Shown here piece by piece: positions 8,934 to 10,315 of a stretch of 13,814 nt of DNA. The DNA comes from a virus (taxonomy: Duplodnaviria > Heunggongvirae > Uroviricota > Caudoviricetes). The notes beneath the pieces are model-generated. The model was not told the DNA's origin. It made no database searches and was given only the letters and a program-made list of their open reading frames with translations. The stretch is taken from the IMG/VR virus record IMGVR_UViG_641736163_000006, one strand, 5' to 3'. Within the stretch, counting starts at the first letter, position 1. Every line of letters begins with the position of its first letter. The position numbers and the translations under genes are program-made.

Positions 8934-9023
8934 TCAATCAGAAAGGCGATCCATAAGAACAATAGCAAGACAATAAATTGCCACTACAGCCGCAATAGCC
9001 AGCGCGCATTTGAGAACCAGCAC
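8934..9023 (-). CDS. Candidate 29-aa hydrophobic single-TM peptide (MLVLKCALAIAAVVAIYCLAIVLMDRLSD), not in the ORF track
   Basis: GTG start at 9023-9021 preceded by a perfect SD (AGGAGG, complement of 9029-9034) at 5-nt spacing; stop TGA at 8936-8934. About 70 bp downstream of the SIR2 stop on the same strand. Short ORF, so coding status is uncertain. Confidence 0.3.
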   Translation of the reverse strand: MLVLKCALAIAAVVAIYCLAIVLMDRLSD

Positions 9024-9093
9024 GATAACCTCCTGTATTGGACGTACACCAGCTCTGATAAATATGAGGCTGCCTCTTTAACTTCGCATTGCG

Positions 9094-10125
9094 CTACCAA
9101 TCAATAAAATCAGTGATGTTATCCAACCTAATTACAGTAACTTCCCGTCTCAACTGGTTTTTCCAATATATCTCACGAGCGTTTTGTTCACCAGCACCGC
9201 TCCACTCAATTACTCTTAAAGGCTTAGAGGTTAGGTAAGGTCGAATAAGCAGGTTAAGGTGAATATCGAGACCAGAGTAACCAAACAATATTATTTCTTC
9301 TGATTCAAATAATGCAAACTGCAAATAATCCCAGTACGTAGAAAGAACATTAGATGCTGCTATAACTGACGGTTTTCTTTTTATATGAGTTAACACTATA
9401 TGCTCACTAGGTTCATCTATGTCAAGAGTAAGTTGTGAGCGTGAAAGTTTTAAAACATTTTCATGCTGATTAATAAATAGTGGTGAACCATGCAAGTGCA
9501 AATAATAACCAAACCTACGATTGTATTTCCGTTCGAGCGCTGCAGAGGAAAATCCGTGGCTTAGCATCCCATCAACTAAAACCCCATCATACCCGTTGAA
9601 TATATCATTATCTATGAATGAATTGTATAATAATTTGTCATAGTTTAATGTCGCGATATGTGAGTGTGTGTTCTTTACAAACTCCACAAGCGCATTTTCG
9701 AATCTTTGTGGCAAACCTTTATCGTAATTATGCAACCTGGTTGCAACTTTGTGAATATAAGTGGCGGTAATTTTGGGGAAGTTTAGTCCATCTTCAGTAA
9801 GCCAATGCACGTTCCCCTCTCCAATTTGAGCAAGAGCTTTACAATATGTGACAGCCTGGTGAAGGGTATCCAACTCATGTTCTCCTTCTGGTGGACCTTG
9901 CCGCTGAAGACAACGCTCGATAAGTTGCTTGTGGATATCTTTTAAAAAATTGGGGCGATGCCAAATTTCTTCCAACGCTCTGTCTAAGGAGAAGTGAGCA
10001 GGATCTAAAGCCATACCGAGACCGTTGCCGAATATTATTAATTTTCTTGCCATATAGGGGGACTCATATTGGAATAACGCTGGATAGCGTCGCGCGATAC
10101 GCTTAAGTTTAGGATTAATAGACAT
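9094..10125 (-). CDS. Standalone SIR2-like (SIR2_2 / DHS-like NAD-binding) protein; candidate NAD+-depleting anti-phage effector
   Basis: 343-aa ORF with the ordered SIR2_2 motif set: Rossmann-like LIIFGNGLGMA, ATLNYDKLLY (NYD motif), YYLHLHGS (catalytic-type HG), IILFGYSGLD. No other domain fused. Upstream region is AT-rich. Confidence 0.7.
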   Translation of the reverse strand: MSINPKLKRIARRYPALFQYESPYMARKLIIFGNGLGMALDPAHFSLDRALEEIWHRPNFLKDIHKQLIERCLQRQGPPEGEHELDTLHQAVTYCKALAQIGEGNVHWLTEDGLNFPKITATYIHKVATRLHNYDKGLPQRFENALVEFVKNTHSHIATLNYDKLLYNSFIDNDIFNGYDGVLVDGMLSHGFSSAALERKYNRRFGYYLHLHGSPLFINQHENVLKLSRSQLTLDIDEPSEHIVLTHIKRKPSVIAASNVLSTYWDYLQFALFESEEIILFGYSGLDIHLNLLIRPYLTSKPLRVIEWSGAGEQNAREIYWKNQLRREVTVIRLDNITDFIDW

Positions 10126-10298
10126 TCCGTTTGATTACACTTGTTATTACAAACTTGCATGCAAAGAAGCCCAAGCTGTTAGGTAAACAGAGACCGCAGT
10201 GGCAAGATAATCTAGATATAGCCTATAAAATCCAACAACAAATAGCGGCCTGTTTTCTATGACTTTTCTTTTCCCTAAATATCGCTTATCTAATAAAA

Positions 10299-10315
10299 TG
10301 CAATAATGTATTGCA
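10299..10315. promoter_or_regulatory. Perfect 7-3-7 palindrome TGCAATA-ATG-TATTGCA in the AT-rich region upstream of the SIR2 gene; possible regulator binding site
   Basis: Seen directly in the sequence, about 175-190 bp upstream of the SIR2 start codon. Confidence 0.3.

Follow-up and report, generated by a model that had tools for sequence, protein, structure and literature searches.

A single-domain SIR2-fold gene carried as one-gene cargo in a hypervariable slot of Qin/Rac-type lambdoid prophages, a candidate NAD+-consuming anti-phage effector

We analyzed a 13,814-nucleotide (nt) stretch of Caudoviricetes DNA (IMG/VR record IMGVR_UViG_641736163_000006, here called the window), focusing on a minus-strand gene for a SIR2-like protein and on the short hydrophobic open reading frame (ORF) of 29 codons that follows it. 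A first-pass annotation of the letters had proposed that the two form a minimal defense module. On the minus strand the order is a CII-like/YdaT gene, an O-like replication initiator, a DUF977/Ren-like gene, an AT-rich spacer, the SIR2 gene and the small ORF. We find that the insert at about 9077-10493 carries one gene as cargo and occupies a hypervariable slot in a lambdoid prophage of the Qin/Rac type, and that the product of its gene is a genuine SIR2-fold protein with NAD-binding and catalytic-type motifs intact.

The protein had been described as 343 amino acids (aa) long. An ORF of 343 codons does exist at 9094-10125 (-), where the frame is open up to an ATG at 10125, and the part of that description which does not stand is the start. 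The start consistent with the family is M25, giving a gene at 9094..10053 (-) and a protein of 319 aa, the length also annotated by PGAP. Our start-codon analysis found that outside Escherichia (Serratia, Klebsiella, Aeromonas, Vibrio and others) no open frame extends 5' of the M25 equivalent, which has a Shine-Dalgarno sequence in front of it. For the 343-aa form AlphaFold2 returned a predicted local distance difference test (pLDDT) of 49, from a shallow alignment. The 24 codons in front of M25 (10054..10125, minus strand) may be either a translated N-terminal extension or a conserved 5' leader; they are open in Escherichia-like sequences only and far less conserved than the SIR2 core. Similarity across these 72 nt (RIALRYPxLF when translated) is still recognizable in Klebsiella and Serratia (loci L005 and L006) despite the closed frame, a hint that the stretch is not coding but a conserved 5' leader element.

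The gene was also said to sit behind an AT-rich promoter region, and a spacer of 368 bp with 34 % G+C is indeed found at 10126..10493 (-). It is part of the cargo, and a promoter scan located within it a promoter-like site that is a consensus match only (TTGACA-18-AAAAAT, 10447..10418, minus strand). The SIR2 gene itself has 39 % G+C, compared to 48-51 % in the flanking DNA. In databases the protein is called no more than 'SIR2 family protein', 'DUF4917 family protein' or 'hypothetical'.

To characterize the protein we aligned 39 homologues from many genera. The motifs FGNGLG (G9-N-G11-L-G13), TLNYD (N137-Y-D139), HLHGS (H186-L-H188-G189-S) and GYSGLD (within GYSG.D.HLN) are invariant or nearly so. 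The equivalence of the N137/H188-type residues to the catalytic asparagine and histidine of ThsA and DSR2 is drawn from motif position and the Pfam alignment range rather than from a residue-level superposition. SIR2_2 (PF13289) is the sole Pfam match of the window protein and passes the gathering threshold marginally (26.1-26.3 bits compared to 24.5, E ~1e-5), while all 39 family members match the model, the best with E 5e-7. The ordered SIR2_2 motif set and the lack of any other domain, as first read from the letters, are borne out by these results, including the profile search that had been suggested as a check.

The AlphaFold2 model built from the 39-sequence alignment has a pLDDT of 90 and a predicted template modeling score (pTM) of 0.89. 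In this model the SIR2 fold begins at residue 4 and the whole 319-aa protein is SIR2, consisting of a Rossmann core and a helical insertion. Comparison with solved structures, likewise suggested at the outset, agrees with the SIR2 fold (Foldseek, E 4e-11). In structure the protein is most similar to the SIR2 subunits of SIR2-HerA complexes, with about 270 of the 319 residues aligned, followed by ThsA (score 14.4), KomC (14.3), canonical sirtuins (11-13), Avs5 (11.6) and FAM118B (11.2). At the level of sequence, the family profile has no SIR2 match among Protein Data Bank (PDB) sequences even at E <= 10.

The family consists of single-domain proteins. We collected 794 homologues, mostly of 319-320 aa, and a profile search of 1.84 billion protein cluster representatives returned 358 clusters at 50 % identity (E <= 0.001). 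Among the best 150 of these clusters, full-length matches measure about 310-370 aa, the longest listed being 397 aa, with no extra domain. Identity runs from 57 to 82 % between Escherichia and Desulfobacteria, and on sequence comparison the family is under strong purifying selection. Apparent fusion homologues of 402-541 aa were set aside as probable gene-calling artefacts, since their additional N-terminal parts contain no Pfam domain and the SIR2 part starts from an internal methionine.

Known SIR2 systems pair the domain with a partner or sensor, and the first-pass annotation had noted that none is present here. This observation extends to the family: no HerA, SLOG, TIR-ThsB or pAgo partner was seen in about 13 independent genomic contexts, no neighbor recurs among them, and the window has no HerA-like, TIR or pAgo gene. 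The homologue of Chromohalobacter lies in an island with HipAB, a QueC/deoxyribosyltransferase operon, Fic and AbiE. Near that of Pseudoalteromonas there is a PycTIR-like gene, a TIR gene that is not conserved across contexts. In Vibrio parahaemolyticus the homologue (L020:7851-9092) is a one-ORF cassette of a chromosomal integron, bounded by attC sites in a 9-copy array adjoining IntI, with ccdAB and Mrr_cat cassettes nearby, and the Pseudoalteromonas homologue (L024:5627-6890) has homologous attC-like sequences on both sides. Mobilization as a one-ORF integron cassette is good evidence that the SIR2 gene functions by itself.

The structural similarity to SIR2-HerA subunits over some 270 residues could also mean that the gene is an orphan remnant of a SIR2-HerA (Nezha) system which has lost HerA and is inert alone. 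SIR2-HerA requires the complex with HerA for activity. We regard this explanation as barely credible, because HerA-like genes are missing from the window and from the 13 or so contexts, the profile yields single-domain clusters (as seen in the best 150) and no solved SIR2-HerA subunit at the sequence level, the catalytic residues are intact and conserved across genera in a manner indicative of purifying selection, and the gene is mobilized alone as an integron cassette.

In complete E. coli genomes the SIR2 gene is found 46 times, 30 times as the allele of the window and 16 times as a second allele (WP_001533280; L027:2760-3719) that occupies the same slot and has 89 % protein identity. In the L027 type the small ORF (35 aa), the hok leader and the DUF977 gene are strongly diverged while hokD is 100 % identical, with a mosaic boundary inside the hok leader. 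In E. coli K_EC180 (L001) the prophage carrying the SIR2 gene is Stx2e-converting, with stx2eAB about 7 kb from the SIR2 gene; such prophages belong to porcine edema-disease strains.

The slot is limited by the replication module on one side and by a hok/sok locus on the other. Upstream are the O-like initiator gene (10942..11961, minus strand; PHROG 391, E 9.5e-94) and then the DUF977/Ren-like gene (10494..10901, minus strand; PHROG 142, E 1.6e-45), which forms the border of the slot and is annotated at this border in every related locus. Together with the low G+C content and the variability of the slot, this arrangement agrees with the earlier suggestion of a cargo position directly after the replication module of a Qin-like prophage. 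The other limit is sharp: homology to related loci breaks near window position 9076, about 17 nt past the SIR2 stop codon. We compared this region across loci L003, L012-L019 and L027-L031 and found alternative cargo in the same slot, namely FRG, DUF4209, SMEK plus methyltransferase, QueH, alpha/beta hydrolase, HNH, AbiH and hypothetical genes. The FRG-domain cargo lies on the opposite strand in E. coli AR_0077 and in phage Tritos. The slot is thus far seen as a hypervariable hotspot both in Qin/Rac-type prophages and in the phages Tritos, mEp460_ev081, Evi and HannyBb. In the literature searched, which left out Brenes & Laub 2025 on E. coli prophage defenses, we found no description of this DUF977-hok/sok slot.

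The small ORF lies on the other side of the breakpoint. It is present as described, on the minus strand, with a GTG start at 9023, a stop at 8934-8936 and a ribosome-binding site AGGAGG at 9029-9034, 5 nt upstream of the GTG (8934..9034 in all), and its product is strongly hydrophobic (grand average of hydropathy, GRAVY, 1.9). All 12 divergent versions compared, even one with only 82 % DNA identity, keep the frame, the GTG and the ribosome-binding site (AGGAGG, or that sequence with one base changed), and the substitutions are conservative hydrophobic ones; the ratio of nonsynonymous to synonymous substitution rates is 0.1-1.2, calculated from too few substitutions. The conservation of its sequence makes the ORF look like a real small gene. 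It had been called unannotated and the only same-strand neighbor of the SIR2 gene. The first description does not apply everywhere, since some E. coli records, including that of REL606, call it 'membrane protein', and the second does not stand, since the same strand carries the O-like and DUF977 genes upstream and the hok promoter and hok/sok leader downstream.

The first-pass annotation went further and proposed the pair as a defense module, with the peptide as a possible membrane partner of the SIR2 protein; in such a two-gene module it could also serve as effector or anchor. The ORF looks real, is on the same strand about 70 nt 3' of the SIR2 stop, has a strong ribosome-binding site, is separated from the SIR2 gene by no convincing terminator and adjoins it in every E. 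coli copy. Against this, the 150 bp holding the small ORF are found in 1,959 of 5,426 complete E. coli genomes (~36 %) compared to 46 for SIR2, and window positions 8740-9076 match thousands of E. coli genomes lacking SIR2 at about 90 % identity. The start of homology near 9076 marks a recombination junction between the two genes. In other genomes the small ORF stands beside cargo of unrelated kinds, partly encoded on the opposite strand. A tblastn search with the peptide as query, like a scan 3' of SIR2 for short hydrophobic ORFs, found nothing comparable, and no consistent small hydrophobic ORF, in 8 non-Escherichia loci (Serratia, Klebsiella, Aeromonas, Vibrio, Chromohalobacter, Pseudoduganella and Pseudoalteromonas), and integron cassettes carry SIR2 alone. 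The SIR2 gene and the small ORF are both diverged in the L027-type lineage, which would favor a module, but the divergence extends over the entire sequence from the hok leader through DUF977. Linkage in that lineage was rejected as support for a module: the divergent small-ORF variant is seen with that allele only, and the 16 copies are near-identical and so count as one observation. We consider a two-gene module very unlikely.

By sequence comparison the small ORF belongs instead to the conserved hok/sok flank and is separate from the SIR2 cargo. It may be a real, unrecognized gene for a small membrane protein that accompanies the hok/sok loci of prophages in roughly one third of E. coli genomes. 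A weak promoter-like site at 8905-8934 (+) would drive an RNA antisense to the small ORF. Judging from the sequence, a second type I toxin-antitoxin pair adjoining hok/sok is conceivable.

Setting the peptide aside leaves a SIR2 protein that would have to act alone. The explanation we favor is an enzyme that would consume NAD+ autonomously, as an NADase or as an ADP-ribosyl/deacyl-transferase, and that the prophage would carry as an anti-phage effector of the abortive-infection type. Such an enzyme would be inactive until infection and then be switched on by a trigger. ThsA, KomC, Avs5 and the Nezha SIR2 dodecamer self-assemble on activation, and by analogy the activation of the window protein may involve self-assembly. 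The slot is shared with Abi-type (AbiH) and other defense-like cargo, which we count in favor of a role in defense, together with the defense-like neighbors of the homologues in Chromohalobacter, Pseudoalteromonas and Vibrio and the precedent of sole-Sir2, described below. From fold and context we infer, with a confidence slightly on the favorable side of even, that the gene is autonomous NAD+-consuming prophage cargo and probably an anti-phage effector.

Several observations weigh against a defense function. Matches to PADLOC v2 models are weak (Aga_SIR2, PDC-S21 and SIR2, with E values from 1e-5 to 1e-9) and none fits the SIR2 protein convincingly, a result compatible with the undescribed candidate of the first-pass annotation. 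The sequence identity reported above is unusually high for a defense gene. Many homologues are singletons among housekeeping genes and not in defense islands, for example 3' of sucCD in Aeromonas or, in Klebsiella, with a LysR regulator on one side and metabolic genes on the other. The SIR2 gene or its protein has no match in the sequenced phages of INPHARED (tblastn), in PHROGs or in BFVD. We found no NADase or phage-resistance work on the family in the literature searched (again without Brenes & Laub 2025), and no characterization of it in publications on DUF4917, PDC-S21, standalone SIR2 or integron and prophage SIR2. Finally, SliP of Campylobacter jejuni, the nearest characterized protein of the DUF4917 type, is reported to be a host-histone deacetylase and not a defense protein (PMC10421069).

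Some of these points would fit better with a sirtuin-type deacylase or ADP-ribosyltransferase acting on proteins of the host, the prophage or a eukaryotic host, with a regulatory or virulence function. Pfam DUF4917 (PF16263, gathering threshold 28 bits) is weakly matched by 26 of the 39 relatives (best E 7e-8), and SliP is a DUF4917 protein with reported deacetylase activity. Conservation across phyla and the frequent occurrence as singletons among housekeeping genes fit a conserved cellular substrate, the absence from sequenced phages, PHROGs and BFVD is in agreement, and some carriers are Stx2e-converting phages of porcine pathogens. On the other hand, the window protein itself has no DUF4917 match at E <= 1, the CxxC...CxxC zinc module of canonical deacetylase sirtuins is not seen in the 39-sequence alignment, and the gene is found in a slot with Abi-type cargo, in integron cassettes and in one defense island. 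We judge this alternative unlikely, while giving it serious weight.

The position of the gene in the early-right operon region of a temperate phage, beside a Ren-like gene, suggests a further alternative, in which the enzyme is a counter-defense or host-takeover factor of the prophage, for example destroying NAD-derived immune signals or modifying host defense proteins. The SIR2 fold can act on substrates containing ADP-ribose, as known from general sirtuin chemistry. This alternative appears very improbable, as most homologues are chromosomal singletons or integron cassettes rather than phage genes and the sequenced phages, PHROGs and BFVD contain no match.

Returning to the anti-phage effector, we hypothesize, tentatively and with the balance tipped slightly against us, that the family of about 319 aa represents the smallest self-sufficient SIR2 immune protein, a bare domain that would sense infection and deplete NAD+ or ADP-ribosylate without a partner, spreading through integron cassettes and a hitherto undescribed cargo hotspot of Qin-type lambdoid prophages. 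An autonomous anti-phage NADase, if the protein proves to be one, would show how small a protein can suffice for SIR2-based immunity and would lend itself to studying what keeps a bare SIR2 domain inactive and what activates it. The slot between DUF977/Ren-like and hok/sok belongs to a class of E. coli prophages that is very common and could be mined for more defense genes. A deacylase or ADP-ribosyltransferase directed at a cellular target would, in contrast, make the gene a mobile regulator or virulence factor whose carriers include Stx2e-converting prophages.

The remainder of the window explains where the prophage ends. The hok promoter lies at 8898..8926 (-), with TTGGCG, a 17-nt spacer and TAGAAT, ends about 6 nt before the 5' end of the hok mRNA and is conserved in all aligned loci. 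It is followed by the hok mRNA leader with the sok antisense region (8731..8891, minus strand), matched by Rfam RF01794 (sok) at 8725-8891 (-) with 108.1 bits compared to a gathering threshold of 59 (E 2.9e-24). In relatives without the insertion sequence (IS) described below, hokD comes directly after the leader, and an intact hok ORF is absent from the window. An IS481-family element (7635..8730, plus strand; transposase ORF 7693-8739, NCBIfam transpos_IS481, E 1e-64) is inserted in the hok ribosome-binding site. We examined its junctions against L001 and L002 and found the target duplication TCTCC on the right side only; the left flank is unrelated DNA, which accounts for the absence of hokD and of the remainder of the prophage. 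The hok/sok locus of the window is inactivated by the IS481-family insertion together with the loss of hokD. Porcine enterotoxigenic and Shiga toxin-producing E. coli strains have the same insertion with hokD kept on the far side.

In the window a DRT island occupies the far side of the element, suggesting a deletion or rearrangement mediated by the IS. This left flank is a decayed Druantia/DRT defense island abutting the prophage remnant. It includes the C-terminal 970 residues of a Druantia DruE helicase that runs off the window (1-2913, minus strand; PADLOC DruE2, 1,239 bits) and a UG5 reverse-transcriptase-nitrilase (DRT) gene in two pieces (3766-5043 and 5851-7566, plus strand) split by IS1. 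Two IS1 copies, 100 % identical, are located at 3012-3779 and 5017-5784. The one splitting the DRT gene has the target duplication CAGTTTGC, and the second is immediately upstream of the gene. Intact versions of the DRT gene exist in other E. coli at 93 % identity.

Both the slot and the protein can be compared with known systems. The hotspots of P2 and P4 (PMC9122126) are likewise fixed slots between conserved phage genes with interchangeable, often defense-related cargo of low G+C content. Unlike these, the slot described here belongs to Qin/Rac-type lambdoid prophages and is located between DUF977/Ren-like and hok/sok.

Among SIR2 proteins, the closest in structure is the SIR2 subunit of SIR2-HerA (Nezha; PDB 8w9l, 8j4u, 8sub and 8uae), to which the window protein has about 15 % identity and no sequence match at the profile level. 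The window protein is shorter by about 80 residues and has no HerA neighbor in the contexts examined. PADLOC, which we take to include the PD systems, gave no PD-system match to the window protein. In Vassallo et al. 2022 the Sir2-like component seems to belong to the HerA-like PD-T7-2 system. ThsA combines SIR2 with a SLOG (or Macro) domain and acts with the TIR-domain protein ThsB, and the window protein and its family have neither. KomC (Kongming) has the partner KomAB and Avs5 a STAND NTPase, neither of which is present in the family. DSR1 and DSR2 are proteins of about 1,000 aa with a large C-terminal sensor, compared to 319 aa here, and no DSR model is among the PADLOC matches. SPARSA has an APAZ domain and an adjacent pAgo; here the Aga_SIR2 match is weak and covers the SIR2 core only (E 3e-6), with no pAgo in the window or the contexts.

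PDC-S21, an untested computational candidate, and DUF4917/SliP are likewise standalone SIR2-like proteins of about 310-340 aa. PDC-S21 is weakly matched by 33 of the 39 relatives (best E 3.5e-9), and in the window protein the match (E ~1e-5) covers residues 4-209 only and is not full-length. SliP of C. jejuni is described as a secreted deacetylase (PMC10421069). Another single-gene SIR2 without a partner is sole-Sir2 (bioRxiv 10.1101/2024.12.27.630466), a CRISPR-supervised protein with NADase activity, a close homologue of which protected E. coli against T2 and T4. It is set apart by its described architecture of about 440 aa, with an N-terminal non-SIR2 proposed sensor and a C-terminal DSR2-like SIR2, whereas in the 319 aa of the window protein the SIR2 fold begins at residue 4 and the resemblance is of the HerA type. 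The window protein is best classed with a known kind, the SIR2 effectors; what is new is the reduction to a bare domain without a partner, not a new category.

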